NCBI GenBank assembly: GCA_964561605.1
Contig: CAZLQD010000010.1
Span: 173,077-237,076, forward strand
Length of the DNA: 64,000 bases
Direction: 5' to 3'
Origin: an uncultured Planctomycetia bacterium
GTDB taxonomy: Bacteria > Planctomycetota > UBA1135 > JALUZX01
In this document: in pieces, positions 26,505-55,858 of the stretch
Layout: each line of letters starts with the position of its first letter
How positions within the stretch are numbered: the stretch's first letter is position 1
Program-made: the position numbers and the translations under genes
Notes under the pieces: generated by a model
Database searches by the model: none
What the model was told of the DNA's origin: nothing
What the model saw: only the letters and a program-made list of their open reading frames with translations

Positions 26505-26848
26505 AAGTCCCTCTCCGGAAGCTTCCGGGCCGGCTCCTCGGGGAGATCCTTTGCCTCCCCGTCCGGGCCTACCGGATCTTCATCAGCCCCTGGAAGCCCA
26601 GGACCTGCCGGTTCGTTCCCTCCTGCTCGGAATACTTCCTCCAGGCCGTCAGGATCCGCGGCCCTCTGGTGGGCCCTCTCCTGGGAATCCTGAGGATCCT
26701 CAGGTGCCACCCCTTCGGCGGATGCGGCTTCGATCCGGTTCCCCGCAAGGGATGGCGCTACCGGGAGGAAGAGGAGGAGGTCTCCCCTCCCCCCGGGGAG
26801 GAACCACCGCTCCCCCCTCTTTCGGAAGGAAGGCGCTCGAACACGTAG
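26501..26848 (+). CDS. yidD: Membrane protein insertion efficiency factor YidD, with a ~30-aa acidic/Pro-rich tail
   Basis: YRIFISPWKPRTCRFVPSCSEYFLQAV...LRCHPFGGCGFDPVP. GTGA overlap with rnpA. Confidence 0.85.
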   Translation: MKVPLRKLPGRLLGEILCLPVRAYRIFISPWKPRTCRFVPSCSEYFLQAVRIRGPLVGPLLGILRILRCHPFGGCGFDPVPRKGWRYREEEEEVSPPPGEEPPLPPLSEGRRSNT

Positions 26849-34979: not shown

Positions 34980-37570
34980 AACGGATCCTCCTGCACCCCC
35001 TCGGCGTCGTGCTCCTGGCGGCCCTGGTCCTCACCGGGCCGGCCATCTTCACGAACCGGGACTTCCAGCCTGTATACCTGGGCGCCTGGGCGCCCTGGAT
35101 CACCGAGGGGGATCCCGCCCCGGCACGGCTCGAGAACGAAAGGGCCGACCTGGACGCCCCGGAGAAGACCTTCCTGGCCCTGCCGGAGATCGTCTCGGCC
35201 CAAAAGGAGATCGCCCGGGGCCGGGTGCCCCTCTGGAATCCCTTCAACCGCACGGGAGGCCCCCTCCTCTCCCACTCCCTGGAAGGCCTCCTCTATCCGC
35301 CCCACTGGATCCTCTTCCTCCTTCCGCCGGGGAAGGCCTTCGCCCTCCTGGCCCTCTTCTCCTTCTTCCTGGCGGCCCTCTTCACCTGGCTCCTTCTCCG
35401 CCTCTGGAGTCTTCCGAAGACGGCCGCCCTGGGAGGAGCCCTCTTCTTCGCCTTCTCCTGCCAGGTGGCGGCCAACGCCCACTTCTTCATGCGCCAGGAC
35501 ACCCTTGTCCTCCTTCCGGGCCTGCTCTGGGCCTTCGAGGCCTGGAGGCTCGGCGGAAAGAAGCGCCACCTGGCCGCCCTGGCCCTCTTCCTGGCTGGAA
35601 CCTGGACGGCCGGATTTCCCCCCTTCGCCTACACCTCCACCCTCCTCCTCTCCGCCTGGGCCCTCCTGGCGGGGGTGAGGACCTGGAGAGAGTCGGGATC
35701 CCCCGCAGCCTTCCGCCTCCTTGGCTGGGCCGGCCTGGCGGGCCTGGCGGGCCTCCTCCTGGCGGCGCCCCAGCTCGTCCCGCTGGCCCACTATCTGCCC
35801 TGGTCCCAGCGGACCCTGGAGGCGGCCGGCGGGGATCCCCGCTCCTGGTGCGCCGACCCGGCGACGGCCCTCACCTGGATCGTGCCGGACCTCTTCGGCG
35901 CACCCTGGACGGTCCGGGACGTGCCCTACATCCAATCCCCCGCCACATGGCTCCTCTTCCTCTGGTCCAAGGAGGGCGTGGGCCTGGTCACGAAATACAA
36001 CTTCACCGAAAACGTTCTCTACATCGGCGCGGCGCCCTTCTTCCTCGCCCTCTGGGGACTCTCCCGTCCCTGGAAAGGAAAGAGGGGCCCTCTCCTGGCC
36101 CTCCTCCTGGGAATCCTCGTCCTGGCCTTCGGCCTGGACGGAGGCCTCCTCTCGGGGATCCTCCCGGGCCTGCGCCGGGCCTGCCCGGACAGGCTCATCC
36201 CGGGAGCGGTCCTCCTCCTCGCCCTCTTCGCCGCCCGGGGACTGGCCCTCCTCCTGGAAAGGGAATTTCCCCCGCGAAGGCTCATCCTCTCCGCCTGGGT
36301 CCTGGTCCTGGTCCTAGGAGGACTCCGGCTCCTCCTGGGAACCCTGGGAGAGGAAACCTGGTCCCGCTGGGTCCTGGACGTCCTGGCAGGCCGTTTCCGG
36401 GGACCCGGCGGGAGGATCTACACCCCGGCGGAGATCGAGTCCCTCTTCCTCCACAAACACATCCTGGAGGCTTCCCTCCGGAACCTGCGGAGCGCCCTGG
36501 GACACGGAGTGCTCGCCTGGGCGGCATTCCTCCTCCCTCTCTCCGTCATGGGGCTGTTGCTCCGCAGAGGAAAGACCCTGCCCCTCTTCTTCGCCCCCCT
36601 TCTCCTTCTCTCCATGGGCCTTCTCGACCTCCTTCAGCCCGCCCTCCGACTCTGTCCCTCTTTCCCCTCCCTGGACCCTTTCTCGGGAACGCCCCTCCAC
36701 AAGGTCCTCCGGTCCGAGAGGGCCAGGCTGGAAACCTCGGGAGGAGTGACCCTGGCCAGGGTGGGACCTGCCGGAACGGAACCGGACCTCTTCCCGGCGG
36801 ACCTGCCCACGGCCATGGGAATCCGGGACCTCCAGGTATACGCCTTCGTGGACAGGCGGACCCACCTGCCCATGGAGCGGGCCTGGAAGGCCCTCTCACC
36901 CGGAGGACCTTCCATCCTCTTCCGAAACGGGCCCTGGATCGGGAATCTTCCCGACTCCCCCCTCCTGGAACACCCCGTCCTGGACCTCTACGGCGTGACC
37001 CACCTCCTGGCCCGCAGGAAGCCCTCCCACGGGCACTTCCGGGAGATCCTGGAGAGGACGGGCCCCGGGGGATCCTACATCCTCCTGGAGAGGACCCCCC
37101 GTCCCCCCCGGGCCAGGGTGGTCTCCCGGGCGGTCCCCCTGGACGACGAGCTTGCCCTGAAACGTATCTCTTCGCCGACCTTCGATCCTTCGAAGGAGGC
37201 CTTTCTCCCCCCCGGCTCGAGGCCCCTGGAGGGAGGGGGGGGAGGAAAGATCCTCTTCCTGTCGGATCGGCCCGACAGGGTGCTCCTGGAGATCCGCCGC
37301 TCCGGGGGAGGGCTCCTCCTCCTGGCCGACACCTGGGCTCCGGGCTGGTCGGCCCGGGTGGACGGGAAGGAGGCGCCTCTCCTCAGGGCCGACACCTGTT
37401 TCCGGGGGGTGGCCCTCCCTCCGGGAGACCACCAGGTGGAATTCCTCCTCTCCAAGGCCCCTTTCAGGACGGGTCTCCTCCTCTTTGCGGCGGGAGGGTT
37501 CCTGCTGCTCCTCCTCCTGGCGGGGCCCTTCCTCCCGGGGGCGGCGGGGAAGAAGGGAGGAATGCCATGA
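34976..37570 (+). CDS. YfhO-family membrane glycosyltransferase (GT-C), paralogue 2
   Basis: Tail of the artefactual 2204-aa ORF. The ATG at 34976 overlaps the previous stop (ATGA). GRVPLWNPFNRTGGPL; C-terminal DTWAPGWSARVDGKEAPL...GVALPPGDHQVEF plus a terminal TM. Confidence 0.75.
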   Translation: MKRILLHPLGVVLLAALVLTGPAIFTNRDFQPVYLGAWAPWITEGDPAPARLENERADLDAPEKTFLALPEIVSAQKEIARGRVPLWNPFNRTGGPLLSHSLEGLLYPPHWILFLLPPGKAFALLALFSFFLAALFTWLLLRLWSLPKTAALGGALFFAFSCQVAANAHFFMRQDTLVLLPGLLWAFEAWRLGGKKRHLAALALFLAGTWTAGFPPFAYTSTLLLSAWALLAGVRTWRESGSPAAFRLLGWAGLAGLAGLLLAAPQLVPLAHYLPWSQRTLEAAGGDPRSWCADPATALTWIVPDLFGAPWTVRDVPYIQSPATWLLFLWSKEGVGLVTKYNFTENVLYIGAAPFFLALWGLSRPWKGKRGPLLALLLGILVLAFGLDGGLLSGILPGLRRACPDRLIPGAVLLLALFAARGLALLLEREFPPRRLILSAWVLVLVLGGLRLLLGTLGEETWSRWVLDVLAGRFRGPGGRIYTPAEIESLFLHKHILEASLRNLRSALGHGVLAWAAFLLPLSVMGLLLRRGKTLPLFFAPLLLLSMGLLDLLQPALRLCPSFPSLDPFSGTPLHKVLRSERARLETSGGVTLARVGPAGTEPDLFPADLPTAMGIRDLQVYAFVDRRTHLPMERAWKALSPGGPSILFRNGPWIGNLPDSPLLEHPVLDLYGVTHLLARRKPSHGHFREILERTGPGGSYILLERTPRPPRARVVSRAVPLDDELALKRISSPTFDPSKEAFLPPGSRPLEGGGGGKILFLSDRPDRVLLEIRRSGGGLLLLADTWAPGWSARVDGKEAPLLRADTCFRGVALPPGDHQVEFLLSKAPFRTGLLLFAAGGFLLLLLLAGPFLPGAAGKKGGMP

Positions 37571-40065
37571 AGCGAGCCCTCCTCTCGGGGATTCTCCTCC
37601 TTGCCTGCGTCCTGGTCCTCCATGGGGAGGTCCTCTTCGGAGGGGGAGTCCGCCTGGCCCTGGACCAGCGCATGTATCCCCCATGGGCCGCGGCCGCCGG
37701 GAGAAAGGGAGAAAGGCTTCCCGATCCGGTCCAGGGGGTCTTCAACCGCCTCTCCACGGATTCCAACTTCTGGTACGAAGGACAGATCCTCCTTGCCAGG
37801 AAGATGGTCCGGAGAGGCCTCCCCCCCTCATGGGACCCCTGGACCCAGGGAGGCACCCCCCTGGCGGCCCAGCTCGGAGTCCCCCTCTGGTATCCTCCCT
37901 TCTGGATTCTCTTCCTCGGCCCCCCTCTCGCCGCCGTGGGCTGGCTCGCCGCCTTCCACATGCTCCTGGCCGGAATCCTCGCCTGGCGACTGGTCCGTTT
38001 CCTGGGCGGCAGCCCCTGGGCGGCCTGTCTCTCGGGGGTCGCCTTCGGGATCGGCCCGTGGATGGCCTTCCGGGAGAACAACATGACCCTCCTGGCCGCC
38101 GCCGCATGGGCCCCCCTCGCCTTCGAAGCCGCAGGCAGGACGGCCTCCGGAGGGAAGCCGGTCCGCTGGGCCCTGGTCCTGGCCTTCGCCCTGGCCCTGG
38201 GCCTCTGGGCGGGCATGCCCCAGCTCGGCTTCGTCACACTCTGGGGCTCCCTCGCCTTCGGCCTCCTGGGGCTCCGCCGGGCCTCTTCCCGGCGAAGGAG
38301 GGTCTTCCTCCTCGGCGGGGCCTTCCTTGCGGGGCTCCTCCTGGCCGCCCCGGCCCTCCTTCCCACATACCGCCTATACCGGAACTCCATCCGGTCCGGG
38401 GAGGAGGCGCCCCGAACCCAGCGGCTCGGCCTTCCCCCGGGGGCCCTCCTGGGCCTCCTCTCCCCGGAAATCCTCGGGAGCGCCTCGGACCTGGCCGGGT
38501 GGGAACGTTTCGAGGATTTTCCGCCGGCCCGGAAATTCCTCACGGGAGATCCCCAGGACAACCCCCTGGAAGACTGCCTCTACCCGGGAGCGGCGGTCCT
38601 TCTCCTGGTCTTCCTCCTCCTCGCCGCAGGAAGGAAGGACCGGGGCGAGGGGAGGCGCCTCCCCAAGGGGGCGGGCTTCTTCCTGGTCACGGCCGCCTCG
38701 GCCCTCCTTCTCTCCCTGCGCCTCCCCCCGCTGGATCCCCTCTTCCGGATCCCGGGACTCGGACCCGAAGACCCCCGGCGGGTCCTGCTCCTCTTCCACC
38801 TCGGCCTGGCCGTTGCCGGCGGCCTGGCCCTGGACCGCCTCTCCCTGTCCCGCCCGCCCTTCCGGCTCCTCCTTCCCCTCCTTCTCGCCCCGGCCCTCCT
38901 CTTCCTGGGCGGCTGGGTCTTCCCCGCCGCCGGAGAAGGAGCCCTGGGCCTTCTCTTCGGCCCCCTGGAGCCCGGCGAGGCCCGCCCCCTCCTCCTCTTC
39001 GAGCGGGCCGCCCTCCTGGGCCCCGCCCTTGCGGCGGCCTGGTCGGCCCTTTCCCTTCTCCTCATGCCCCGCCTCGGGAAAGCAGGCAAGGCGGCCATCC
39101 TGGGAGGCCTCGTCCTGGAATGCCTCCTCTTCGCCCTGAGGACCAACCCGGCCCCTCCCATGGCCCAAGTGGAGGCCCTGGGGACGACCCGGACCGAGAA
39201 GGCCCTCCTGGAGCTGGCCCGCAAGGCAGGTCCCCAGGGCCCCCCCAGGCTCCTCCACGTCCGTTGTTTCCACGCCCTCCAGGGGAACCTGGTCACCCCC
39301 CAGGGGATCCCGGCCGTCTCCACGACCCACCCCCTTCCCTTGCGCCGTTTCGCCCGGAGGATGGAGCTCGTGGAGAAGACCCTGGTGGACCCCTCCCTTC
39401 CCAGGGGGATCGCCTGGCTCAGGAACCCCCGCTCCTGCCTCCATCCTCTCCTGGCCTCGGCCCGTATCGGCCTGTTTTGTTGCGACGACCCGGAAACAGC
39501 GTCGGAGTTGGAGGCCCTCGGCCTGGAACGGGTCTTCCCTCCTCCGGGAAAGGAGGCCCTCAACGAGGGGGTCGCCCTCTTCGCCTCTCCCCGGACCGGC
39601 CCCCGGGCCAGGATGGTCTTCTCCTGGAAGGAAGTCTCTTCGGTCGGGGAGGCCGCCCGGGTCCTTGCCGCGGGAAAGGGCCTTCTCCCCGTGGAACCGG
39701 CACGCCCCCTCCCCGAGCCGGTCCCTCCCGGGAGACCGCCCCGGATCCGGTGGATCCTCTCCAACCCGGGGACCATCTACCTCGAGGTGGACACGGGAGG
39801 GGGAAGGGGGATCCTGGTGATCGCCGATTGCTGGTACCCGGGCTGGATGGCCCGGGTGGACGGAAGGCGGGTCCCGGTCTTTCCCGCCGACCTGGCCTTC
39901 ATGGGGATCTACCTGGAACCCGGCCGGCACAGGATCGAACTCTCCTTCCGGGACCCGGACCGGATCCCGAGAATCCTCCTCCTCGGGGCGGCGGCGGGAG
40001 TCCTGGCCCTCCTCGCCCTTTTCGGGTCGGGGAAGCCCCCTGGAGCAAGAGGCTGGAGGTCCTGA
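37567..40065 (+). CDS. YfhO-family membrane glycosyltransferase (GT-C), paralogue 3
   Basis: Tail of the artefactual 1405-aa ORF. ATGA overlap at 37567. C-terminal DCWYPGWMARVDGRRVPV...GIYLEPGRHRIELSF plus a terminal TM. Confidence 0.75.
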   Translation: MKRALLSGILLLACVLVLHGEVLFGGGVRLALDQRMYPPWAAAAGRKGERLPDPVQGVFNRLSTDSNFWYEGQILLARKMVRRGLPPSWDPWTQGGTPLAAQLGVPLWYPPFWILFLGPPLAAVGWLAAFHMLLAGILAWRLVRFLGGSPWAACLSGVAFGIGPWMAFRENNMTLLAAAAWAPLAFEAAGRTASGGKPVRWALVLAFALALGLWAGMPQLGFVTLWGSLAFGLLGLRRASSRRRRVFLLGGAFLAGLLLAAPALLPTYRLYRNSIRSGEEAPRTQRLGLPPGALLGLLSPEILGSASDLAGWERFEDFPPARKFLTGDPQDNPLEDCLYPGAAVLLLVFLLLAAGRKDRGEGRRLPKGAGFFLVTAASALLLSLRLPPLDPLFRIPGLGPEDPRRVLLLFHLGLAVAGGLALDRLSLSRPPFRLLLPLLLAPALLFLGGWVFPAAGEGALGLLFGPLEPGEARPLLLFERAALLGPALAAAWSALSLLLMPRLGKAGKAAILGGLVLECLLFALRTNPAPPMAQVEALGTTRTEKALLELARKAGPQGPPRLLHVRCFHALQGNLVTPQGIPAVSTTHPLPLRRFARRMELVEKTLVDPSLPRGIAWLRNPRSCLHPLLASARIGLFCCDDPETASELEALGLERVFPPPGKEALNEGVALFASPRTGPRARMVFSWKEVSSVGEAARVLAAGKGLLPVEPARPLPEPVPPGRPPRIRWILSNPGTIYLEVDTGGGRGILVIADCWYPGWMARVDGRRVPVFPADLAFMGIYLEPGRHRIELSFRDPDRIPRILLLGAAAGVLALLALFGSGKPPGARGWRS

Positions 40066-40067
40066 GG

Positions 40068-40844
40068 GTGGCGCGGGATTTTCCTTTCAGGGTATACCAA
40101 CTGGGCTCCGGGTCCTCGGGCAACCTGACCGCCCTGGAGGGTCCGGAGGGGGTGCTCCTGGTGGACGCGGGCTTCCCCGCCAGGGAGGTGATCCGGCGCC
40201 TCGAGAGGGCGGGCCTGGACCGGCGGGCCGTCCGGGCCCTCCTGCTCACCCACGCCCACCTGGACCACGCCAGGGGGGCGGGAGTGCTGGCGCGGCGCCT
40301 GAAGATCCCCATCCTGGCCGCCCCCTGGACCCTGGAGAACCTGGGCGGACTCCGGGGGAGGGAGGAACTCCTCCCCGTTCCCGAAAGGGGCACCTTCCGG
40401 GCGGCGGGCTTCCTGGTGGAAACCCTTCCCGCCCCCCACGACATCCCTGGAACCTTGATGGTCAAGGTGGAGGGAAAAGTGGGCCTTGCCACGGACCTGG
40501 GCCATGCCGGGGAAGAGGTCCGGAACTTCCTCTCCGGCCTGGAAGGACTCCTCCTGGAATTCAACCACGACGTGGAGATGCTTCGGAACGGTCCCTATCC
40601 CTCATGGCTCAAGAAGAGAATCCTCTCGCCCAGGGGCCACCTGGCCAACGACCAGGCGGCGGAACTCCTGGCAGGCCCGGGATTCACCCCTCCCAGGCGC
40701 GTCCTTTGGCTCTGCCACCTGAGCGAGAAGAACAACCGTCCCGAATTGGCTCTCCAGGCGGCCCGGCGGGTGATCCGGAACGGAGGGGTCTCCATCCTGG
40801 TGGCCACCCCGTCGGGAGACCCCCGGCCCCGCACATTTCCCTGA
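40068..40844 (+). CDS. MBL-fold metallo-hydrolase (YycJ/PhnP-like)
   Basis: GTG 2 nt after the YfhO-3 stop. LGSGSSGN, LLTHAHLDHARG, NHD, GHL motifs. Confidence 0.8.
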   Translation: MARDFPFRVYQLGSGSSGNLTALEGPEGVLLVDAGFPAREVIRRLERAGLDRRAVRALLLTHAHLDHARGAGVLARRLKIPILAAPWTLENLGGLRGREELLPVPERGTFRAAGFLVETLPAPHDIPGTLMVKVEGKVGLATDLGHAGEEVRNFLSGLEGLLLEFNHDVEMLRNGPYPSWLKKRILSPRGHLANDQAAELLAGPGFTPPRRVLWLCHLSEKNNRPELALQAARRVIRNGGVSILVATPSGDPRPRTFP

Positions 40845-40951: not shown

Positions 40952-43900
40952 ATGGGGAAGCACTACGCCCGTGCTTGGTGGGGATGCATGCCGGCGGCCC
41001 TTCTTCTTCTTTGGGGATGCGGCGGCGGAGGAGGCGGGGGAAGCGCGGGGGACAGCCTGGGAGCGGGAAACAACCCCCTGGCGGGAAACATCCAGATCAC
41101 GGGCCATACCCCGGCCGACCGGGCGGTGCAGGTTCCCTTGGACGGGAAAGTCACCATCTCCTTCGACTCCCCCATCGTGGCGGGGAGCTTTTCCAGCGGC
41201 CAGGTTACGGTCCAGCCCGAGGGAGGGGTTCCCGTCCTGGGCGACTTCACCCTGGATTCTTCCCACAAGGTCCTTACCTTCACCCCCCTGGAGCCCTTCG
41301 AAGAGGCCACGGACTACCTGGTCACCGTCAAGACCCTGGTCTACGACACCCACTACCGGACCCTTGCCAGGGATTTCACCTTCACCTTCCGGACCCTGGA
41401 CCAGGATCCGCCCACCCTGGTCTCTCTCACCCCCTCGGCCGAATCCACGGGCGTATCCCCCAAGGTGGTGCTTGTCGCACGCTTCTCCGAGGACCTGGGG
41501 AGTGACTCCGTCGACGGAGACAGCGTCTTCCTGAGGGACCCCACGGGAGCATCCGTTCCCGGAAGGGTCACCCTGGAAGGGAGCGTGGTCTATTTCACGC
41601 CCCTGGCCGACCTCGTGGGTGGAACGCGCTATACCTTCTTCATCCGCGGAAAGGAACGGGGGATCCGGGACCGCTCGGGAAACGCCCTGGAACAGGATCT
41701 GCGTTTTTCCTTCACCACCGGTTACGACACGACGCCGCCCAAGATCCTGGCCACTTATCCCCCCCAGGGGGCCACGGGCGTCTCCCCGGAAGCGGCCTTC
41801 CGGGTGACCTTCGACGACTCGATCGCCCCGGATTCCGTCTCCCAGGAGGCCCTGGTCCTGGTGGGGCCCGAAGGGATGTCCATTCCGGTGAACGTGGAGA
41901 ATTCTCCCGACCTGCGGACCCTCCTGGTGGTGCCCATGACGGACTTGGACGAGGATACCGACTACGCCCTCCTCCTGGCGGCCGGGGCCGAGGGGCTCCG
42001 CAACAGGAGCGGAGTGGCCATGGAAGGATCCTTCCACGTCTCTTTCAAGACCGGCAACCGGGAGGCTCCGCCCTCGGTGGAGAGCCACGTTCCCTCTTCG
42101 GGGGAAAAGAAGGCGGCGGTGAACCTGGCCGCCCGGGTGGTCTTCTCCTCCCCCATGTTCTCTCCCACCTTCACCTCCTCGACGGTCCGGCTCCTCCGGG
42201 AGAACACCCCTGTGGACGCCTCGGTCTCCCTCTCCGGGGACGGCACGACCCTCACGGTCAGGCCCGTGAAGAGGCTCTCCCCGAAAACCACCTACACCCT
42301 GACCGTCGAGGGTGGGCCCTACGGAGTCCTCTCCCGGGCCTACCTCCCCATGAGCCGTACCTTCACTCTGACCTTCACCACCACCGGGGACACCCAGGTG
42401 CCGGAGGTGAAGGTCTTTCCCTCGGACGGAACCGCCATGGTTCCCACGAGTTCCTCCTTCGTGGCGGTCTTCTCCGAGCCCGTCGAGGCCTCGACCGTGA
42501 CCTCCTCCACGGTTCGTTTGCTCGACCCCGCAACCGGAGCCCCCGTGGAAGGGAGTCTCACCCTCGAGCAGGAGGGCAGGGCCGCCCGCTTCAAGCCGGC
42601 CCTGCCCCTGGCCTCGAACAAGAGCTACACCTTCCAGGTGGCCGGCGGTGCGGACGGGGTGAAGGACCTGGACGGGAACTGGCTGGATCAGACGGTCCAG
42701 GCGTCGGTCCGGACGGGTTTCCAGGGGGACAACACGCCCCCCGTGGTCACGATCACGGTGAACGAGATTCCATCGGACATGAACCAGGGCCTCCAGCTGG
42801 CTCCCTTCGGCTTCACCATCGACGTCTCCGGGTTCGACCCGGCCGACGCCGCCGTGGACCCGGCCTCCCTGGAACTCATCGTCTCGGGAACGGGCGCCTT
42901 CTATCCGGCGGGGTTCAAGCTCTTCCGCTGGGCAAGCGTGCCCTCCCAGGACCAGGTGATCCTGACCGTCCCACCGAGCCTCCCCTTCGCCCCGGGAACG
43001 GTGACCGTCCAGGCCACGCTGGCAGACCTCTCGGGCAACCGGAGCAGGCCGGCGACGATCGAGTTCACCGTGGGAAGCCTCACGCCCGAGGCCAGGCCCC
43101 TGGAGAGGAACCAGGTGGTCTTCGTGGACTTCCGGACCGACCGGGAGGGGAACGGCCACGGGGACGGCACGGCCGACTGGATCCAGGACCTCCAGGACTA
43201 CGGCCTCATCGCCGCCGGCGACCCCATCGGGAAGAACGCCTGGATGACGGACCTGATGGAGGCTGCGATCCTGGCGAAGGCCAACGAACTCTACGGAAGG
43301 AATCCCGACGGGACTCCCAAGACGGAAGGGTCCGTGTCGATCCGCTTCGTCCGGGAGAGACCCCCGGCCGGGATACCCTTCCTCCACATGGCCTTCGGAG
43401 GCCAGGATCCGGAAGGGGGGAAACGAACCCTGGGGCAGGACTCCACGGGGGTTCTCGGCCGGGCCTGGTACGACCTGAAGAACAGCAACTTCTCCGACAA
43501 CGACGCCGGCACCAGCCCGGGTCTCGGGATCTTCCCCGGGGAACTCTTCCTCTACCAGGCCAATCTCTACAACCAGCTCTATCCAGGCTATATCACCACC
43601 TTCGGCAAGAGGTTCGCCCTGCTCTCCCCCCTCCTGGGAGGAACACCCGTTGGGAAGGACCCCCTGGATCCGGTGGTCCTGGACGAGAACTTCGACTTCG
43701 ACAACGCCACGGCCGCCCAGAGGAGCAGGTACCTCGCCATCTTCCAGGCGGCCGACGACCTGGCCGTGGCCCTGGCGACCATCCTGGCCCACGAAGTGGG
43801 TCATTCCCTCGGCCTGGTCACCCCCGGTCCGCCTCCGGCGGGCTTGTGGGGGGACGCGAGTCTGCACGTGGACAAGGCCAGGCCCGAGGACATCATGAAC

Positions 43901-43993
43901 GCCGTCGTGGGCTACGACGCCCTGGTGGAAGAGATCTACCGCTTCCGGCCCTTGAACATGGCCTACCTGAGGGAGCGGATTCTCCTGAAGTGA
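40952..43993 (+). CDS. Large lipoprotein: about 5 SbsA-type bacterial Ig-like repeats plus a C-terminal HExxH zinc-protease-like domain
   Basis: Lipobox LLLLWGCGGGG. Repeats of the form PPxxxxxxPxxGxxGVSPxxxxxxxFSExxxxxSV...FTPxxxLxxxTxYT. C-terminus has ILAHEVGHSLGL and a downstream EDIMN. Confidence 0.7.
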   Translation: MGKHYARAWWGCMPAALLLLWGCGGGGGGGSAGDSLGAGNNPLAGNIQITGHTPADRAVQVPLDGKVTISFDSPIVAGSFSSGQVTVQPEGGVPVLGDFTLDSSHKVLTFTPLEPFEEATDYLVTVKTLVYDTHYRTLARDFTFTFRTLDQDPPTLVSLTPSAESTGVSPKVVLVARFSEDLGSDSVDGDSVFLRDPTGASVPGRVTLEGSVVYFTPLADLVGGTRYTFFIRGKERGIRDRSGNALEQDLRFSFTTGYDTTPPKILATYPPQGATGVSPEAAFRVTFDDSIAPDSVSQEALVLVGPEGMSIPVNVENSPDLRTLLVVPMTDLDEDTDYALLLAAGAEGLRNRSGVAMEGSFHVSFKTGNREAPPSVESHVPSSGEKKAAVNLAARVVFSSPMFSPTFTSSTVRLLRENTPVDASVSLSGDGTTLTVRPVKRLSPKTTYTLTVEGGPYGVLSRAYLPMSRTFTLTFTTTGDTQVPEVKVFPSDGTAMVPTSSSFVAVFSEPVEASTVTSSTVRLLDPATGAPVEGSLTLEQEGRAARFKPALPLASNKSYTFQVAGGADGVKDLDGNWLDQTVQASVRTGFQGDNTPPVVTITVNEIPSDMNQGLQLAPFGFTIDVSGFDPADAAVDPASLELIVSGTGAFYPAGFKLFRWASVPSQDQVILTVPPSLPFAPGTVTVQATLADLSGNRSRPATIEFTVGSLTPEARPLERNQVVFVDFRTDREGNGHGDGTADWIQDLQDYGLIAAGDPIGKNAWMTDLMEAAILAKANELYGRNPDGTPKTEGSVSIRFVRERPPAGIPFLHMAFGGQDPEGGKRTLGQDSTGVLGRAWYDLKNSNFSDNDAGTSPGLGIFPGELFLYQANLYNQLYPGYITTFGKRFALLSPLLGGTPVGKDPLDPVVLDENFDFDNATAAQRSRYLAIFQAADDLAVALATILAHEVGHSLGLVTPGPPPAGLWGDASLHVDKARPEDIMNAVVGYDALVEEIYRFRPLNMAYLRERILLK

Positions 43994-44011: not shown

Positions 44012-45028
44012 ATGAAATCGAGTGGAAGACTCCTCGCCCGGATCCCGCTTCTTTCGGCCCTCCTTCTCGCATCGGGGGTCCTGCCGGCCCAGAGGGAGGC
44101 CTTCACCCTCTCCAGGCTGGTGAAGCTCGCCGACAAGGCCGCCCTCTTCCGCGTGGAAAGGCTCCTTCCTCTGGGGAAGGGGGAGACAGCCCTGGTTCTC
44201 ACCGCCCTGGACCCGGTCAAGGGGATCCAAAGGTTCGAGGCCCTCCGTGTCCTCTCCAGGGGAGATCTCTGTTTCGAGGCGGACCTGAGAAGACTTCCCG
44301 GGGGAAGCAAGATCCTCCTCTTCGCCAAGGCCCTCCCCGGAAGGCCCGGTCTCTTCGCCCAGCTTCCGGGAGGCCTCCTGCCGGGAGACCCCAGGGCGGC
44401 CGAGGCGGCCCGGGCCCTCGAGAAGGCGGGAAGGAAGGGGGACCTGGTCAGGGTATTGGCCCTTCAGCTCGAGAACCCCTGTCCCAGGGTCTGGCAGGAC
44501 GCCCTCCTCTCCCTCTTCCGTTCCCGGACTGCCGACCTCTCGGCCCAGGCCAGGCTCCTGGAGCCCGCCCTCGTCAGGCTGGTCCATAGGGAGAGTCTCG
44601 ATCCCGACGCCTTCGCCACCTGGGCGGTCAGACTTGCCCTTCGGCTGGGAATGAAGGAGGTCGTCCCCTACCTCTCCTCCCTCTACATCCGGTCTGGCGG
44701 AAACTCAGGCTTCGACCCCTTCCTCCTGAAGGCCATGAAGCGCCTGGATCCCGAAGGGGCCGTCCGGAGCGCCGCCCTCGCCCGGACCGGGGGGAACCCC
44801 CGGGCTGCCCTGGCAAAGGCCCGCCTCCTTGCCGCCATGGGGAGCCCGGGAGCCCTGGAGCACTTGAAGGCCCTTGCCTCCCGTTCGCCCTTCCCGGAGG
44901 TCCGCTCCGTCGCCAAGGCGGGCCTCGCCGCAGCGGAGGCGGTACCGGGAAAAGGGAAAGGCACGGGGAAGGCCCCGGCGAAACCGCTCTTCCGGGCCAT
45001 TTTCAAGGGAAGGCGAAAGATCAAGTAA
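44012..45028 (+). CDS. Secreted helical-repeat (HEAT/ARM-like) hypothetical protein
   Basis: Signal peptide MKSSGRLLARIPLLSALLLASGVLPAQ. C-terminal half has HEAT-like repeats (VVPYLSSLY..., AAMGSPGALEHLKAL..., PEVRSVAKAGL). Confidence 0.5.
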   Translation: MKSSGRLLARIPLLSALLLASGVLPAQREAFTLSRLVKLADKAALFRVERLLPLGKGETALVLTALDPVKGIQRFEALRVLSRGDLCFEADLRRLPGGSKILLFAKALPGRPGLFAQLPGGLLPGDPRAAEAARALEKAGRKGDLVRVLALQLENPCPRVWQDALLSLFRSRTADLSAQARLLEPALVRLVHRESLDPDAFATWAVRLALRLGMKEVVPYLSSLYIRSGGNSGFDPFLLKAMKRLDPEGAVRSAALARTGGNPRAALAKARLLAAMGSPGALEHLKALASRSPFPEVRSVAKAGLAAAEAVPGKGKGTGKAPAKPLFRAIFKGRRKIK

Positions 45029-45121: not shown

Positions 45122-45970
45122 TCACCGGGCCTTGCGGAGAACCCAGTAGAGCCGCCAGCCCTTTCCCTGGTCCTTCAGCAGGAGGAAGAAGGCCGGGCCT
45201 CGCGTTCCGGAACCGAAGGAATAGAGGCTCACGCTTCCCTCTCCGGCGCTCCACCACTGGAACTGGTCCGCCTCGAGGAGATCCTCCGCCTTTCCCGGGT
45301 CCGCCAGGAGGGCCGCCTTGTCCAGGGTCCGCTCCACCATCCCGCCGGGCCCCATCTCCTCGATCCGGAAGAGAGGGTGGAGAAGGCCGGCCAGGGCCTT
45401 TTTCCCACCTTTCCCGGAGATCAGGGCTTCCCGGACCTTCCGGAGGACCTCCAGGGCCTGGAACTTGACCTTTCCCGGAACGGGGGTCCTCCTCTCCAGG
45501 GCGACCTGGACCAGGGCGTCGTTGAGACGGCGCTGGCTCTTGAGCAGTTCCGCCGTCTCCTCCATGACCTTGGGAGCCGGCGTCCCTTCCCCTCCCGAGA
45601 GGGAAGCCCTCCCCCCCATCCGGCTCAGGACCAGGATGGCCCCCAGGCTCACCGCCAGGAGGACGAAAGTGGACTTTCTGCCCCCCCCGCGAAGAAAAGG
45701 AAGGGTGAAAGGAAGCCCCGTGGGCCTGCCCCCCTTCCGCCCCGGGGCGCCGCCGCCCTTCTCTTCGAGGCTCGCCTTCCATTCCAGGCCGAAGATGGAG
45801 GCGCACTCCCGGCACTCCGCCAGGTGGGCGGCCAGCTCGCGCCTGGCCTGGGCGTCGATGGTCCCCTCGATGTAGGGGCCGAAGAGGGCCCGGTAGTAGG
45901 CGCAGGTCCTGGGCAGGATCTCGGCCATCTTCTTCTTTTCTTCGAACGAGGCACGACCCCGCCTTGACAC
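45122..45970 (-). CDS. zf-HC2 anti-sigma-factor-like single-pass membrane protein
   Basis: CAYYRALFGPYIEGTIDAQARRELAAHLAECRECAS (putative zinc finger), one TM (STFVLLAVSLGAILVL), and an extracytoplasmic domain. The start may be the Met at 45928. Confidence 0.6.
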   Translation of the reverse strand: MSRRGRASFEEKKKMAEILPRTCAYYRALFGPYIEGTIDAQARRELAAHLAECRECASIFGLEWKASLEEKGGGAPGRKGGRPTGLPFTLPFLRGGGRKSTFVLLAVSLGAILVLSRMGGRASLSGGEGTPAPKVMEETAELLKSQRRLNDALVQVALERRTPVPGKVKFQALEVLRKVREALISGKGGKKALAGLLHPLFRIEEMGPGGMVERTLDKAALLADPGKAEDLLEADQFQWWSAGEGSVSLYSFGSGTRGPAFFLLLKDQGKGWRLYWVLRKAR

Positions 45971-46064
45971 CCATTTTGCCCCTCAAGTTGAGGCCCCCCC
46001 GGGCCGATGCCTTGTCCATAGGCTTTTTCAAAAAAAACACCGTCGCAGGAGAGACGCTGGAACC

Positions 46065-48692
46065 ATGCACCGGATCCGCGAGAAAAAGGGGAGACTCCCC
46101 CTGGAGGAGCTGCCGCTCCTTCCCGGCCAGGCGGAGTCGTTGAGAAAAGCCGGCCTGGCCGGGGTGGAAGACCTCTTCAGGCATCCCGCCGTCCAGGCAG
46201 CCATCGGAAAGATCCTGGCCGAGCCCAAGGGGGAGTGGGACCGGGAGGTCCTGGACCTTCCCCTGGAAAGCTTCCTCTCCGGTCCGGGCCTGGAGAACCT
46301 CCACGCCAAGGGGTGCCGCACCCTGGGACACCTCCTCTCCCTGCCGGTGGAATCCTACAAGGAACTGGCCCACCTGGACTGGAATCCCCAGGGGCTCCTG
46401 GAATCCCTGGGGCTTCCAAAAAACGACGGGCCGGATCTGGACAGACCCATAGAGGAATTCGCCCAGACTCCCCGGGCGAGGAAGGCCTGCCGGGCCCTGG
46501 GCGTCCGCACGGTCCGTGACTTCCTCGCCAAGGACAAGTCCGAGTTCCTCGCCGTCCCCGGAGTGGGGCCGAAGACTTGGAAGGGTATACAGAAAGGAGT
46601 CAGGGAGTACCTCTCCCGGTCCAAGGAGCAGAACTCCCAGGAACATCCCGGCCTGGAGACCCCCCTCAGCCGGCTCGTGGAGAACAAGCGGGCCGTCAAA
46701 GCCTTCGAGGAGCTCGGCCTCGTCACGGTGAAGGACTTCCTCCGCACGCCGAAGGACAAGTTCCTCTCTCTCAGGAATTTCGGGGAAAGGACCTGGTGGG
46801 AGATCCAGGCCCGGATCCAGGCTCTCTTCGGAACGGCCCATCCCGTTCCCCCCGCCTGTCCCCCTTCCCTCCTGGAGCTAAGGGTGGAACTCCTTCCCCT
46901 CCCGGGCAGGGCCGCCGCCGTCCTGAAGGAAATGGAAGTCCACACCGTGGGGGACCTCTTCGCCCTTCCCAAGGGGTACCTTCTCTCCCACCGGAACTTC
47001 GGCGAGGAAAGCTGGAAGGCCCTGGTGACGGCCCTCGACGAGGCGGTCCGCCAGGGACTGGCCCAGGTGGCCGGCCCTCCCCCTGCGGAGGTCTCGGGTC
47101 TGGAAGAACTCAGGAAGATCCTGGAAGAAAGACTCCCCGACGACAGGAGTCGTTTCGTCCTCGAGGCCAGGACGGGCCTCGAAGGGGGCGAAGTGCTGAC
47201 CTTGCAGAGGCTCGGAAACCGCCTGGGAATCTCCCGGGAGCGGGCCCGCCAGCTCTCCAACAAAGTCCGGGACGTCCTGGCCGGCCGGGCCAGGCCCTAC
47301 CTGGAACGCCTCAAGGGCGAGGCCGAGGAGTTCATCCTCTCCCGGGGCGGAATCGCCTCGGGAAAGGACCTCTCCACCCTTCCCCTGGCCCAGGGGAAGG
47401 GTGGCCCCGGGAAGAGGGCCCGGATCGTGGAGGAGATCCTCCTCTTCTTCTTCCCGGAAGACTTCCACCGCCTCTCCACGGGAGCCCTGACCACGGCCTC
47501 CCCGGAGAAGGTACGGCTCCTCCAGAAGGCCCTGGGGGAACTCTTCGCCGGAGGGGTCCGTTCCCGCCCCAAGGAGGCCCTGGCCAAGGCCCTGGAGGAG
47601 GCGGACCTGGAACCGGAGCTCTACACGGGTCTGGCCCTCCACCTGGCCCGGTTCCGTTTCGGTGCGGCCCTGGTGCAGGAGAGAAAGAGGGAGACCCTCC
47701 AGACCCCCGGCGCCGGAGCGGCCGAAAGGGTCGCCCGGATCCTGGCGGGCAGGAAGGCCCCGGTGAGCCTCTCGGACCTCCAGGTGGTCTTCTCCAGCAG
47801 GTTCTCCGCCATCTCCCGTAGGAGGCTCAGGCGGATCCTGGCCTCGGACAGGCGTTTCGTCCGGCTGGGACCGGATCTCTACGGCCTGGCCAGGGATTTC
47901 CCCCTGGACGGAGAGAAGGCCCGGAGGTGGAGGGAAAAAGCCCGGAAGATCCTGGAGAGGGAAGAAAGGCCCCTTTCGGTGGCCGAGATCCTTCCCGGCG
48001 AGGATCCCTACCAGGTGGACCGGGCTCTAAGAGGGGCCAAGGGTTTCCGGCCCCTGGGAAAACTTCTCTATACTCTCGACCGGGCAGGAAGGGAGAGGCC
48101 CTCCTGGATGGAGAGGCTCGTTCTCGGGCTCATGGAGGAGACGGGCGGAGAGCTTCCCCTGGAGGACCTGGTCCGCGCCCTCTCCCAGGGCGACGGCCCC
48201 TCGCCCGGGGCCCTGAGGGAGCTGATCCTCTCTTCCCGCCTCTTCGCCCTCTATCCCGGCGGTGGTTACGGACCGGCGTCCGCACACCCGGTGGATCCGG
48301 AGAGGAGGATCAGGGCACTGGATACGGCCCTGGAGATCCTGAGATCCCGAGGAGGTTACGACCGGGTCCCCCGGCTGCGGCTGGAACTCACCGGCAAGGA
48401 CATCCTCCCCCGCCGGGTGGACGAGAAGATCCTGAGGGACTTCATGGCCCGGGACGGGAGGTTCGAGTTCTTCGGCGAGGACTTCGTGACCCTCGCCGGA
48501 GGAGGGACCCTCCCCTGGATCCAGGAGACGGTCCTCTCCGCCCTCAGAGAGGCGGGGGTTCCCCTCTCCCTTCCGAGGATCCTGGCCGAGCGGCCCGAGC
48601 TGGCCGAGTTCGAGGAGGCCCTGGAGGAAATCCTCAGGAAGTCCCCCTTCGTGGTCACCCTGGAGGACGGGACCTTCGGACTCCTCTCCTGA
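46065..48692 (+). CDS. Multi-domain transcription-associated protein: 5 RNAP alpha-CTD-like HhH repeats, a sigma-70 region-4-like HTH, and about 5 HARE-HTH-like winged-helix repeats
   Basis: Repeats such as TPRARKACRALGVRTVRDFLAKDKSEFLAVPGVGPKTWKGI and ENKRAVKAFEELGLVTVKDFLRTPKDKFLSLRNFGERTWWEI (aa ~10-330). EARTGLEGGEVLTLQRLGNRLGISRERARQLSNKVRDVL (aa ~346-406). C-terminal repeats end in RFVRLGPDLYGLARDF, RFEFFGEDFVTLAGG, VVTLEDGTFGLLS. Confidence 0.65.
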   Translation: MHRIREKKGRLPLEELPLLPGQAESLRKAGLAGVEDLFRHPAVQAAIGKILAEPKGEWDREVLDLPLESFLSGPGLENLHAKGCRTLGHLLSLPVESYKELAHLDWNPQGLLESLGLPKNDGPDLDRPIEEFAQTPRARKACRALGVRTVRDFLAKDKSEFLAVPGVGPKTWKGIQKGVREYLSRSKEQNSQEHPGLETPLSRLVENKRAVKAFEELGLVTVKDFLRTPKDKFLSLRNFGERTWWEIQARIQALFGTAHPVPPACPPSLLELRVELLPLPGRAAAVLKEMEVHTVGDLFALPKGYLLSHRNFGEESWKALVTALDEAVRQGLAQVAGPPPAEVSGLEELRKILEERLPDDRSRFVLEARTGLEGGEVLTLQRLGNRLGISRERARQLSNKVRDVLAGRARPYLERLKGEAEEFILSRGGIASGKDLSTLPLAQGKGGPGKRARIVEEILLFFFPEDFHRLSTGALTTASPEKVRLLQKALGELFAGGVRSRPKEALAKALEEADLEPELYTGLALHLARFRFGAALVQERKRETLQTPGAGAAERVARILAGRKAPVSLSDLQVVFSSRFSAISRRRLRRILASDRRFVRLGPDLYGLARDFPLDGEKARRWREKARKILEREERPLSVAEILPGEDPYQVDRALRGAKGFRPLGKLLYTLDRAGRERPSWMERLVLGLMEETGGELPLEDLVRALSQGDGPSPGALRELILSSRLFALYPGGGYGPASAHPVDPERRIRALDTALEILRSRGGYDRVPRLRLELTGKDILPRRVDEKILRDFMARDGRFEFFGEDFVTLAGGGTLPWIQETVLSALREAGVPLSLPRILAERPELAEFEEALEEILRKSPFVVTLEDGTFGLLS

Positions 48693-48696
48693 GGGG

Positions 48697-48724
48697 AAAA
48701 AAGGGGCCCCGAAGAGGGGCCCCC
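48697..48724 (-). terminator. Intrinsic terminator after the PAP2 gene (minus strand)
   Basis: On the minus strand: ggggcccc-tcttc-ggggcccc (8-bp GC stem) followed by tttttt. Confidence 0.6.
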
Positions 48725-51226: not shown

Positions 51227-52726
51227 TCACTTTTCCGAGGGGGTCATGTCCCGGCTCTTGGCCTCCGTTCCGTCGAAGGAGAGGATCTTGCCCTTTCCCC
51301 CGAGCCGGGTCTCGATGTGGACGGGACGTTTCCACATCCTGTGGAGGTTCTTCAGGGTCTCCAGGGCCTCGTCGAGCTGGAGCTCCACGCCGTCCCACCG
51401 GTGCACGAGATAGAGCTCGCCCCGGTTCCCGTAGTTGCCGTCCACCACGGTGATCCAGGGCTGGCCGAAGTTGGTGAGCTGGCGGATGAGCTGCTCCTTC
51501 ACCTTCCGGTAGTCCCTGTCCACGATCTCCATCCGGCCCGTCTGGGGATTGAAGCCGTAGACGAAGAGCTTGAGCCTCTCGGCGAATTCCTCCGTCAGGA
51601 ATTCATCTATGAAGGAGACGTCGTTGTAGATCCGCCGGACCTCGAAGATCTTCTCGCGCCCCAGGCCCAGGTGGAGGTCCCAGTCCCGGAGCTTCTCGGC
51701 GTCGTCGCACTCCTCGTACTCCTTGCCGAACCTTCCCTTGTTCCAGCGGTCCTCGATGTCCCGGAAGAGCTCCACGCCGATCTTGTAGGGGTTGATCCGC
51801 CCGGGCATCATGGCGAGGGTGCCGGCCGTGTGGTCGGCGTAGTCCACGACCTCCTCGTCGGTGAGGATCCTGGAAGTCATGATCTTGGAGTGCCAGTACA
51901 CGGCCCACCCTTCGTTCATGATCTTCGTCTGGCCCTGGGGAGCGAAGTAGTAGGCCTCCTCCCGCAGCATGGCCAGGATGTCCTGCTCCCAGGGCTCCAG
52001 AGGGGCGTATTCGAGCAGGAACTTGAGGACGTCCTTGCGGGGCTCCGGAGGGAAGCTCCGCTCCCTCGCCCTTTCCTCCAGGATGCGCTTCTTCTCGGCC
52101 TCGAGGAACTCCGGGGGATTGATGTACCGGTCCATGTAGTCCCGGTCCGTCTTGATCTTGGAGACCACCACCCTGTCGGGGTCCATGTCCTCCGGGGAAG
52201 GCGGCGGGGACTCCCTCCTGATGAAGGGGGAGTGGATGTCGATCAGGTTGTCCAGGGAGAGGCAGGCGTCGATGAACTCCTCCACTCTCTCCACGCCGAG
52301 CCTGTCCATGTAGGACCGGATCCTGGAGCCGTGGTTGGCCATCCGGTCCATCATCTTCCTGTCGGTCTTGCTGAACCAGAGGTTGTTCTTGAAGAAGTCA
52401 CAGTGGCCGTACACGTGGGCCATCACGAGTTTCTGGTCCACCATGCTGTTGGACCGCATGAGATAGGCGTAGCAGGGATCGTTGTTGATCACCAGTTCGT
52501 AGATCTTGGAGAGCCCGTAGGAGTAGCTCTTGGAGAGCTCCTCGTATTCCATCCCGAACCGCCAGTGCGGATAACGGGTGGGGAATCCCCCGTAGGCGGC
52601 CACCATGTTGAGCTCGTCGTAGTCCACCAGCTCGAAGATGGTCTCGTAGAAGTCCAGGCCGAACTCCAGGGCCACGTCCCGGATCCGGTCCCTGGCGGCG
52701 GCGAGTTCGGGTGTAAGGTTTCCCAC
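51227..52726 (-). CDS. spoVR: SpoVR/YcgB family protein
   Basis: GTG at 52726 preceded by gggagg. GLDFYETIFELVDYDELN, HWRFGMEYE, AHVYGHCDFFKNN, IMNEGWAVYWH. Confidence 0.9.
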   Translation of the reverse strand: MGNLTPELAAARDRIRDVALEFGLDFYETIFELVDYDELNMVAAYGGFPTRYPHWRFGMEYEELSKSYSYGLSKIYELVINNDPCYAYLMRSNSMVDQKLVMAHVYGHCDFFKNNLWFSKTDRKMMDRMANHGSRIRSYMDRLGVERVEEFIDACLSLDNLIDIHSPFIRRESPPPSPEDMDPDRVVVSKIKTDRDYMDRYINPPEFLEAEKKRILEERARERSFPPEPRKDVLKFLLEYAPLEPWEQDILAMLREEAYYFAPQGQTKIMNEGWAVYWHSKIMTSRILTDEEVVDYADHTAGTLAMMPGRINPYKIGVELFRDIEDRWNKGRFGKEYEECDDAEKLRDWDLHLGLGREKIFEVRRIYNDVSFIDEFLTEEFAERLKLFVYGFNPQTGRMEIVDRDYRKVKEQLIRQLTNFGQPWITVVDGNYGNRGELYLVHRWDGVELQLDEALETLKNLHRMWKRPVHIETRLGGKGKILSFDGTEAKSRDMTPSEK

Positions 52727-52731
52727 GGCCC

Positions 52732-53829
52732 CTACCTCCCCTTCCCCAGGAAGTCCTTGATGGATTGGAGGATCCCCTCCCGGTCGGGGATGTCCGAGGT
52801 GATCAGGGCCTCCTCGTCGGGGAAGGCCTTGTCCAGGTCCTTCTTGAACTGGCCCGAGCCGTAAGCGGAGCGGACCTGGCCGTAGCAGAAGGCGTTGACC
52901 GAGGGCAAGAGATCCTCCTGGAGGATCTGGATACACCTCTCCGTGTCCCGGGAGGACCAGTTGTCTCCGTCGGAGAAGTGGAAGGGGTATATGTTCCACT
53001 CCTCCGGGGGAAACTGGGCCCGGATCAACCTGTCGCACAGCTCGTAGGCCGAGGAGATCTTCGTCCCCCCAGCCTCCCTCAAGTGGTAGAAGGTGTTCTC
53101 GTCCACAAGGTGGGCTTCCACGTCGTGGACGATGTAGCGCACCTCGAGATTCCTGTACTGGTGGCGGAGCCAGGTGTCGATCCAGAAGGCCTCGATCCTC
53201 ACCAGCTCCTTCTGTTCCTTCCCCATGGAGCCCGAGACGTCCATCATGTAGATCACCACGGCGCTGGCCTGGGGTGTGGGCTTCTTCTTCCAGGAGCGGT
53301 AACGCCTGTCCTCCTTGTAGGGGATGATCACCGGGTGATCGGGGTCGTAGAGCCCCATGGCGATCTGGCGTTTCAGGGCCTCCTTGAAGGTCCGCTTGAA
53401 GTGCCGGAGCGTCTCGGGGCCGGCCTTGGCGATCCCCGTGTAGGCTCCCTTCTCGGCCGCCGTGAGCCGGGCTCCCTTGGGCTGGATGTTGGGAAGCTCC
53501 AGCTCCTCCCCCAGGATCTTGGCGAGCTCCTCGAGCTCCACGTCCACCTCGAGGATGTGCTGGCCGGGCTTGTCGCCGGCCTGCTTCTGCCCCTCGCCGG
53601 TGTCCACGGGGGTGCCTTCCTCCCCCTCGCCCTGGCCTACCCCCTGGCCCTTGTTGTCGCCGAAGCGGAACCTGGGAAGCCTGACCTGGGGAAGGGGGAT
53701 GGAGACGGTATGCTTCCCCTTCCGCCCGATCAGTTCGCCCTGGGAGACGTACTTCTTCAGGTTCTTCTTTATGATCCCCCGGACGATCTGGCGGAACCGG
53801 GTATGGTCCTTTTCGATTCTCTTTACCAT
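52732..53829 (-). CDS. yhbH: YeaH/YhbH family protein (DUF444, vWA-like)
   Basis: [34 protein letters not shown]. Sits between prkA and spoVR. Confidence 0.9.
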
Positions 53830-53839
53830 GGGTCGGCGC

Positions 53840-55858
<2,019 letters not shown>

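Follow-up and report, generated by a model that had tools for sequence, protein, structure and literature searches.

The C-terminal domain of the alpha subunit (alpha-CTD) and region 4 of sigma factors are normally parts of the RNA polymerase (RNAP) holoenzyme. A 2012 paper by Aravind and Iyer is reported to have noted bacterial HARE-HTH proteins with alpha-subunit and sigma features; in papers that cite it, the domain is confirmed in delta subunits, restriction enzymes and glycosylases, but not in the alpha/sigma context. A literature search on the combination of RNA_pol_A_CTD with Sigma70_r4, and on MzaA, found nothing usable. In PglW of type 2 bacteriophage exclusion (BREX) systems, an alpha-CTD-like domain is followed by three winged helix-turn-helix modules, according to an analysis from 2026 (PMC12839542). 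The gene considered here, at 46065–48692 (+) of a 64,000-nucleotide stretch (the window) from an uncultured Planctomycetia bacterium (contig CAZLQD010000010.1, positions 173,077 to 237,076), encodes a chain of 875 amino acids that joins alpha-CTD-like units, a sigma region 4 and winged helices. Its sequence leads us, tentatively, to regard the product as a cytoplasmic, non-sigma, multi-headed DNA-binding regulator of transcription, the form of which in the window's clade would be gated by an anti-sigma-like protein.

The 875-residue protein is the product of a real gene. Its open reading frame (ORF) begins with ATG and specifies a protein of 97 kDa with a pI of 9.3, and the GC content at its three codon positions (0.70/0.46/0.85) is typical of coding sequence in a genome of about 66% GC. 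Six relatives align over the full length at 42–75% identity, and independent assemblies contain an identical protein. Because of this full-length conservation in independent assemblies, a gene fusion or an assembly artefact was ruled out. The gene encodes, in order, five alpha-CTD-like units (N1–N5), a sigma region 4 (S4), a helical linker module (H0) and six winged helices (C1–C6), and no kinase, nuclease, methylase or ATPase domain was found in the protein.

The AlphaFold2 (AF2) model of the full protein has a mean predicted local distance difference test score (pLDDT) of 74.8 and a predicted template modelling score (pTM) of 0.37, with flexible linkers whose pLDDT lies below 50. With a pTM this low, the packing of the domains in the model is unreliable, and a Foldseek search with the whole model, which returned mostly generic tandem winged-helix arrays (UFL1, SelB, ESCRT-II) together with SigA region 4, is for the same reason informative for fold class only. 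Net charge varies along the chain: it is 0 for N1, −4 for N2, +5 for N3, +3 for N4, −2 for N5 and +4 for S4, and in the C-terminal half it is +9 for C2, +5 for C3, −4 for C4 and −6 for C6. Of the six winged helices, the first two are strongly basic.

A preliminary description, drawn from the letters of the window, had read three kinds of domain into this protein. Its sigma-70 region 4 without regions 2 and 3 was borne out. Its count of five alpha-CTD repeats held for three of them, and the remaining two proved to be degenerate. Its approximately five HARE-HTH-like repeats correspond to six winged-helix units, of which C2–C6 are related to one another and C2 leads to RNAP delta through its family profile, but the HARE-HTH model itself stays below threshold in this protein. 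As a whole, the assignment of the three kinds of domain withstood comparison by profiles, structures and repeats.

The alpha-CTD signal is strong. The Pfam model RNA_pol_A_CTD (PF03118; cutoff 23.8 bits) scores 72.3 bits on the whole protein, spread over three stretches. When the segments were scanned singly, N3 (residues ~123–185, 46431–46619, as all units on the plus strand; basic) reached 24.8 bits, and also 31.5 bits with HHH_5, above the threshold of that model; N4 (residues ~200–254, 46662–46826, basic) equalled the cutoff with 23.8 bits; and N5 (residues ~267–335, 46863–47069, slightly acidic), which lies directly before the sigma domain, scored best with 36.6 bits and has RpoA of M. 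tuberculosis as a PDB match. In comparisons by hhalign, for which the profiles of the N units were built from seven close homologues, N3, N4 and N5 are mutually homologous at 97–98% probability. Neither N1 nor N2 gave a Pfam match when tested as segments. These two units are related to N3 and N5 at 58–68%, over the first helix-hairpin-helix only: N1 (residues ~12–51, 46098–46217) is a degenerate half domain (68% to N5 over 32 residues), and N2 (residues ~60–114, 46242–46406) is a degenerate, acidic alpha-CTD-like unit (58% to N3). Family alpha-CTD hidden Markov models (HMMs) built in this analysis detect N1 and N2 in the window protein (E<0.01), and the same models give four units, not five, in other members of the clade.

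Comparison with RpoA indicates what has been kept of the DNA-binding '265 determinant' (R265, N268, G296, K298 and S299 in E. coli). In an alignment with the E. coli alpha-CTD, the equivalents of R265 and G296 appear to be present in N3, N4 and N5, and that of K298 is K in N3, R in N4 and E in N5; N268 is replaced in every unit, and N1 and N2 lack the R265 and G296 equivalents. The likeness to the RpoA CTD consists of three units that pass PF03118, all with apparent equivalents of R265/G296 and two with a basic residue at K298. The differences are the replaced N268, the tandem arrangement, the two extra degenerate units and the missing N-terminal domain of alpha: no dimerisation and assembly domain was found, and the rpoA equivalog models of NCBIfam align only by their C-terminal ~60 positions, with 48–57 bits against cutoffs of 228–277. 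Judged by these profiles, N3–N5 are three genuine alpha-CTDs, preceded by two degenerate N-terminal units.

The sigma domain, S4, spans residues ~346–408 (47100–47288) and is of the primary-sigma type. Sigma70_r4 (PF04545; cutoff 24.1 bits) matches residues 359–403 with 28.6 bits in the whole protein and 33.1 bits when the segment is scanned separately. The best matches among solved structures are region 4 of primary SigA, chains of which are also found by Foldseek with the full AF2 model. The recognition helix reads GISRERARQLSN, and in the PDB alignment GISRERARQL stands opposite GVTRERIRQI, so that Taq/Thermus SigA has the same RERxRQ in its region 4 recognition helix. In complexes of sigma-A with −35 DNA, these are the residues that read the −35 hexamer. 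The helix is kept only in the window's clade and has diverged in most of the wider family.

Nothing else of a sigma factor was detected. Sigma70_r2 and Sigma70_r3 gave no match in Pfam at E≤10, the PDB search found no such region either, and all sigma models of NCBIfam match the protein only by their region-4 end, over the last ~55 positions; the space ahead of region 4 is occupied by the alpha-CTD domains. Since regions 2 and 3 are missing, the protein is not a sigma factor, and this candidate identity was rejected on the failure to find region 2. Compared with a primary (group 1) sigma factor, S4 shares the best sequence and structure matches, the 'GLxxG..TL' spacing and an identical R-E-R-x-R-Q. 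It differs in standing alone, without regions 1.2–3, and in having a helix that is not conserved in distant members.

The C-terminal half begins with H0 (residues ~410–478, 47292–47498), a helical linker module conserved in all family members and modelled at a pLDDT of 82–93, for which Pfam has no match. After it, residues 480 to 873 form six units in the AF2 model, each of three helices and a hairpin. C1 (residues ~480–546, 47502–47702) is winged-helix-like and weakly related to the others, with hhalign probabilities of 33–37% to C4 and C5. Then follow C2 (residues ~548–608, 47706–47888), C3 (residues ~616–668, 47910–48068; basic and related to C2, with a partial PF05066 match at residues 622–643), C4 (residues ~681–737, 48105–48275; a relative of C2 and C6 that is acidic in the window protein), C5 (residues ~745–810, 48297–48494; a winged-helix repeat supported by the AF2 model and by hhalign to C3) and C6 (residues ~815–873, 48507–48683), the acidic C-terminal winged helix, which contains PELAEF, the most conserved motif of the family. 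With unit profiles built from a 43-member family alignment, hhalign gives probabilities of 94% for C2–C4, 91% for C4–C6, 88% for C2–C3, 84% for C3–C5 and 79% for C3–C6.

The assignment of C2 to the HARE-HTH type is supported by sequence profiles. In the window protein, HARE-HTH (PF05066; cutoff 25.9 bits) remains below threshold, with 19.7 bits for the whole chain, 14.0 for C2 and 14.6 for C3. The orthologous C2 unit matches this model in 22 of the 43 family members (best E 9e-6), and the six best PDB matches of the family profile of C2 are all RNAP delta subunits (E 2.5e-4 to 8e-3), in an alignment that spans both helix 1 and the hairpin with D.RF...g..WgLR. Modelled by itself with AF2 (pLDDT 87), C2 forms a canonical winged helix of three helices and a hairpin; among its Foldseek matches, delta structures rank 3, 8 and 15 (E 0.03–0.1), amid the winged helices of Z-alpha, DsrD and Fur. 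The fold is therefore compatible with the assignment, and the fold alone is no proof of it. By profile, C2 resembles the N-terminal HARE-HTH of the delta subunit (RpoE) of Firmicutes; by fold it is not distinguishable from other winged helices such as Z-alpha, Fur or DsrD. Unlike delta, the protein has no polyanionic C-terminal tail: no acidic low-complexity tail was found in its 875 residues, which hold tandem folded units instead, so that the domain occurs five to six times, and its own score is lower than the Pfam cutoff.

The combination of these domains is not unique. An exhaustive search of 1.84 billion representative proteins returned 573 at E≤1e-3, 25 of them at E≤1e-30; a word-indexed homologue search found seven close relatives only, even with a 43-sequence profile. 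In a unit HMM scan of the best 150 representatives, approximately 50 carry the complete layout of one to five alpha-CTDs, S4, H0 and C1 to C6, and a further ~60, of 500–1200 residues, carry alpha-CTDs in varying number followed by S4, some of them also a C2-like unit. Three proteins (P0041, P0058 and P0062) have alpha-CTD, Sigma70_r4 and HARE-HTH in that order, all above Pfam thresholds. Three source labels of relatives point to metagenome bins of Planctomycetota, where the single locus returned by a genome scan with a narrow alignment also lies, and one relative bears the NCBI name 'sigma factor-like helix-turn-helix DNA-binding protein'. Neither the full-length family nor the block of H0 and six winged helices is spanned by a model in Pfam or NCBIfam. 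PglW models also match, by their positions ~795–982 only: positions ~807–982 align to residues 274–438, which cover N5, S4 and the start of H0, with E-values of 5e-18 (PADLOC) and 6e-15 (NCBIfam), at 54 bits against an equivalog cutoff of 990. The preliminary description had not recognised the combination as a described class, and this did not survive the search, given the whole layout in about a third of the best representatives, the existing NCBI label and the PglW module. On these matches, the protein belongs to a computationally known architecture class.

Several members of the wider class have architectures or surroundings of their own. P0058, at 5644–8316 of its locus (L012), lies within an island of restriction–modification and toxin–antitoxin genes that includes an N6/N4 methylase, an MNT-HepT pair, a ResIII restriction enzyme and a C5 methylase, P0058 itself standing between ResIII and the methylases; defence contexts are thus among the settings of the wider architecture class. 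P0041 (L013, 7001–10444; 1147 amino acids) repeats alpha-CTD and S4 three times in alternation before its HARE-HTH, which suggests that alpha-CTD plus S4 behaves as a duplicating unit. P0060, of 1031 amino acids, has some 10–11 tandem alpha-CTDs (452 bits with PF03118) and has no sigma region 4.

Upstream of the gene, on the minus strand, a divergent gene at 45122–45928 encodes an anti-sigma-like membrane protein of the zf-HC2, or zinc-binding anti-sigma (ZAS), type, with an N-terminal C...HxxxCxxC motif, one transmembrane helix and an outer domain of ~150 amino acids (PF13490, 27 bits; RsrA-like). Its longest ORF extends to 45970, where a GTG start overlaps a conserved TTGACA, and the orthologues match the ATG at 45928. 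The H-LAE-C-RE-C motif and the upstream Cys are conserved in four orthologues, and the outer domain is conserved too. Each of the five independent loci examined from the window's clade (window/L001, L002, L003/L004, L005 and L010) has a divergent zf-HC2 gene, which is absent from all five distant loci examined (L006–L009 and L011). The idea of a link between the 875-residue protein and this neighbour gains support from that distribution, because the gene occurs in every clade locus examined and in no distant one. The same clade is also the only one with the canonical RERxRQ and with the extra units N1 and N2. No sigma gene was found between 32 and 57 kb of the window, and the zf-HC2 gene has no adjacent gene for a sigma factor of the extracytoplasmic function (ECF) group. 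With the ECF sigma/ZAS anti-sigma pairs the neighbour shares the HxxxCxxC zinc motif; the candidate pair differs from them in that the presumptive partner offers a primary-type region 4 only and is divergently transcribed, rather than being an ECF sigma with regions 2 and 4.

The 136-bp intergenic region between the two divergent genes (45929–46064) contains blocks that are conserved across orthologues: TTGACA at 45964–45969, CCCTCAAG at 45980–45987, GCCGATG at 46003–46009 and T5CA8 at 46024–46037, with the A8 tract at 46030–46037. The first three, with TTGACA or TTGAAA as the first, are kept down to an orthologue of 42% identity, and T5CA8 is common with the 72% orthologue. A further block, TTCTTCGAnCGAG, is conserved in this region between orthologous loci whose proteins are 42–72% identical. 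A 13-nt palindrome, CCTCAAGTTGAGG, is found in the window's intergenic region and is not kept in L003. The block CCCTCAAG is not enriched (5 matches, 7.8 expected), and a promoter scan of 44.9–49 kb found no sigma-70 consensus promoter.

The gene is also the last of a conserved arrangement on its own strand. The first gene (40952–43993, +) encodes a lipoprotein of 1013 amino acids that has five Ig-like domains of the Big_5 type and, at its C-terminus, a zinc-peptidase-like HEVGH motif, and the middle one (44012–45028, +) a signal-peptide protein of 338 amino acids with weak HEAT-like similarity. The order of Big_5 gene, ~340-aa gene and alpha-CTD/S4 gene on one strand recurs in the five distant loci, at ~25% identity. 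In three of these loci (L007, L008 and L011) the alpha-CTD/S4 gene has an overlap of 4 nt with the ~340-aa gene, to which it would thereby be translationally coupled. The Big_5 protein and its counterpart in L007 share 38% identity over 963 residues, and the middle protein is fast-evolving.

In the proposed mechanism, the helix-turn-helix of S4 would bind a −35-like hexamer and N3 and N4 the flanking A/T-rich minor groove, and the winged helices C1–C3 would add further contacts with promoter-like DNA, leaving the acidic or degenerate units N1, N2, N5 and C4–C6 to make contacts with proteins. The DNA-contact residues that appear to be kept are the R265/G296 equivalents and the K or R at K298 in N3 and N4, and RERxRQ in S4. 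The juxtaposition of N5 and S4 recalls the contact between alpha-CTD and sigma region 4 at UP-proximal sites of E. coli promoters. Occupancy of promoter-like sites might occlude or pre-mark promoters, with the Big_5 operon of the gene itself and the divergent promoter region at 45929–46064 as the most likely targets. In the window's clade, the membrane zf-HC2 protein would probably hold the sigma-4 domain at the membrane, through a predicted binding, until an envelope signal releases it.

Several observations weigh against this proposal. Recognition of the −35 type would not be a family-wide mechanism, because the S4 helix has diverged in most of the wider family. No motif was found to be common to the regions upstream of this gene and of the Big_5 gene, and the conserved TTGACA may simply serve the promoter of the gene itself as an ordinary −35 element. 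Domains of the zf-HC2 type normally clamp regions 2 and 4 of ECF sigmas, and here they would meet a lone region 4 of the primary type. Finally, the N-terminal domain of delta, the one HARE-HTH with a known role in transcription, binds RNAP and not DNA (PMC7749165). A more specific version of the proposal, in which a stand-alone promoter-reading head would sit on UP-element/−35-type DNA without polymerase, kept in check by the membrane zf-HC2 anti-sigma, and would couple an envelope signal to competition with the housekeeping holoenzyme at promoters, appears unlikely to us; it would be a transcription regulator under anti-sigma control without being a sigma factor. The scaffold that the preliminary description suggested, which would mimic or compete with alpha-CTD and sigma region 4 at promoters, is plausible, with RERxRQ kept and apparent equivalents of R265/G296/K298 in two alpha-CTDs.

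The main rival to a DNA-binding regulator is an accessory factor associated with RNAP, which we consider possible, if somewhat unlikely. Here S4 would dock on the beta-flap tip and the HARE-HTH on beta-prime, and the extra alpha-CTDs would add upstream contacts with DNA or activators, or would block region 4 of sigma-A. All sigma-70 factors bind the beta-flap through their region 4, as is well established, and Foldseek aligns the model to chimeras of SigA region 4 and the beta-flap. Such docking would also suit the C2 profile, which is closest to delta, the N-terminal domain of which binds between the beta-prime shelf and jaw (PMC7749165). The missing acidic, delta-like tail speaks against an accessory factor, however, as does an operon shared with secreted proteins rather than with genes of the transcription machinery, and the basic charge of N3, N4, S4, C2 and C3 fits nucleic-acid binding better. 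The idea that the protein is a sigma factor of an unusual kind, guiding RNAP to promoters, draws on a region 4 that scores above the Pfam threshold and keeps its −35-reading residues, but it would need region 2, for core binding, −10 recognition and melting, and neither this region nor region 3 was found by Pfam, NCBIfam or PDB searches; with alpha-CTDs filling the space before region 4, the idea is effectively refuted.

The number of heads on the chain invites a less specific function. With up to ~10 potential nucleic-acid-binding modules, each weak and of low specificity, a nucleoid-associated or DNA-bridging architectural protein could coat or bridge DNA, and the pI of 9.3, the flexible linkers (pLDDT <50) and the tandem winged-helix arrays among the Foldseek matches are in keeping with this. 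Yet half of the units are acidic, the kept base-specific RERxRQ argues for sequence-specific binding, and the operon linkage and anti-sigma-like neighbour suggest a dedicated regulatory role, so that we rate an architectural protein as improbable. Still less probable, in our estimate, is a sensor for phage defence or DNA modification, comparable to the PglW module or to the HARE-HTH proteins of restriction–modification islands. In its favour, PglW models align to residues 274–438, the relative P0058 has the same three domain types between ResIII and DNA methylases, and a role in reading modified DNA has been proposed for HARE-HTH (PMC4738411, PMC3417536). A defence sensor is at odds with the chromosomal neighbourhood, which is stable down to ~25% identity and in which no neighbour of the gene matches any PADLOC model, and with the protein itself, given that it has no kinase, nuclease, methylase or ATPase domain. 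Because synteny is kept to that depth, the locus is unlike a mobile defence island, and the candidate identity of a defence-island gene was rejected on its stable housekeeping synteny.

The remaining surroundings of the gene are as follows. On the opposite strand downstream lie genes for PAP2, DUF502 and rhomboid proteins and a SpoVR-DUF444-PrkA operon (51227–55858, −; DUF444 is YeaH-like), which the rhomboid and DUF502 genes precede, and the rhomboid/SpoVR/PrkA block stays near the locus across the lineage. Between the convergent ends of the alpha-CTD/S4 gene (48692) and the PAP2 gene (48786), a GC-rich hairpin with a 9-bp stem occupies 48702–48724, preceded on the plus strand by a run of A and provided with a run of T on the minus strand; it is probably a shared terminator. 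Farther upstream, two very large adjacent ORFs (32358–40065, +; 873 and ~1400 amino acids in the longest reading) have a weak C-terminal YfhO-like match, and they are followed by a gene with a metallo-beta-lactamase fold at ~40068–40844. The genes rnpA, for the RNase P protein, and yidD stand side by side at 26094–26848 (+), a pair that is often found near the replication origin region.

The interest of the DNA-binding regulator proposed here lies in the separation of polymerase parts from the polymerase. A free protein with several copies of alpha-CTD and sigma region 4 could compete with polymerase at the upstream half of promoters, pre-mark this half or recruit polymerase to it. That an orphan membrane protein of the anti-sigma type accompanies it in one clade only is a hint that the range of proteins under the control of anti-sigma domains might extend beyond sigma factors. 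Additionally, the target of the module of alpha-CTD and helix-turn-helix could inform the DNA-sensing step of defence systems such as BREX and restriction–modification, because the module is common to PglW and relatives of the protein lie in such islands. Against this must be weighed that every domain is known, that the combination is common in databases, and that the mechanistic statements are ones we infer.

Among described systems, PglW offers the likeness of an alpha-CTD and helix-turn-helix module that matches N5 and S4. It differs in its kinase, nuclease and STAND-like domains, none of which occurs in the 875-residue protein, no BREX genes lie near the gene, and the score is far below the cutoff. 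The closest comparison is with the proteins that combine alpha-CTD, sigma helix-turn-helix and HARE-HTH, in which these three domain types follow one another as they do here, and which come in many cases from Planctomycetota bins. The family described here differs from them in a fixed and longer C-terminal module, composed of H0 and six winged helices, in an alpha-CTD number of one to five, and in its place in a Big_5 operon rather than in a restriction–modification island. To this the window's clade adds two degenerate N-terminal units and the anti-sigma-like neighbour.

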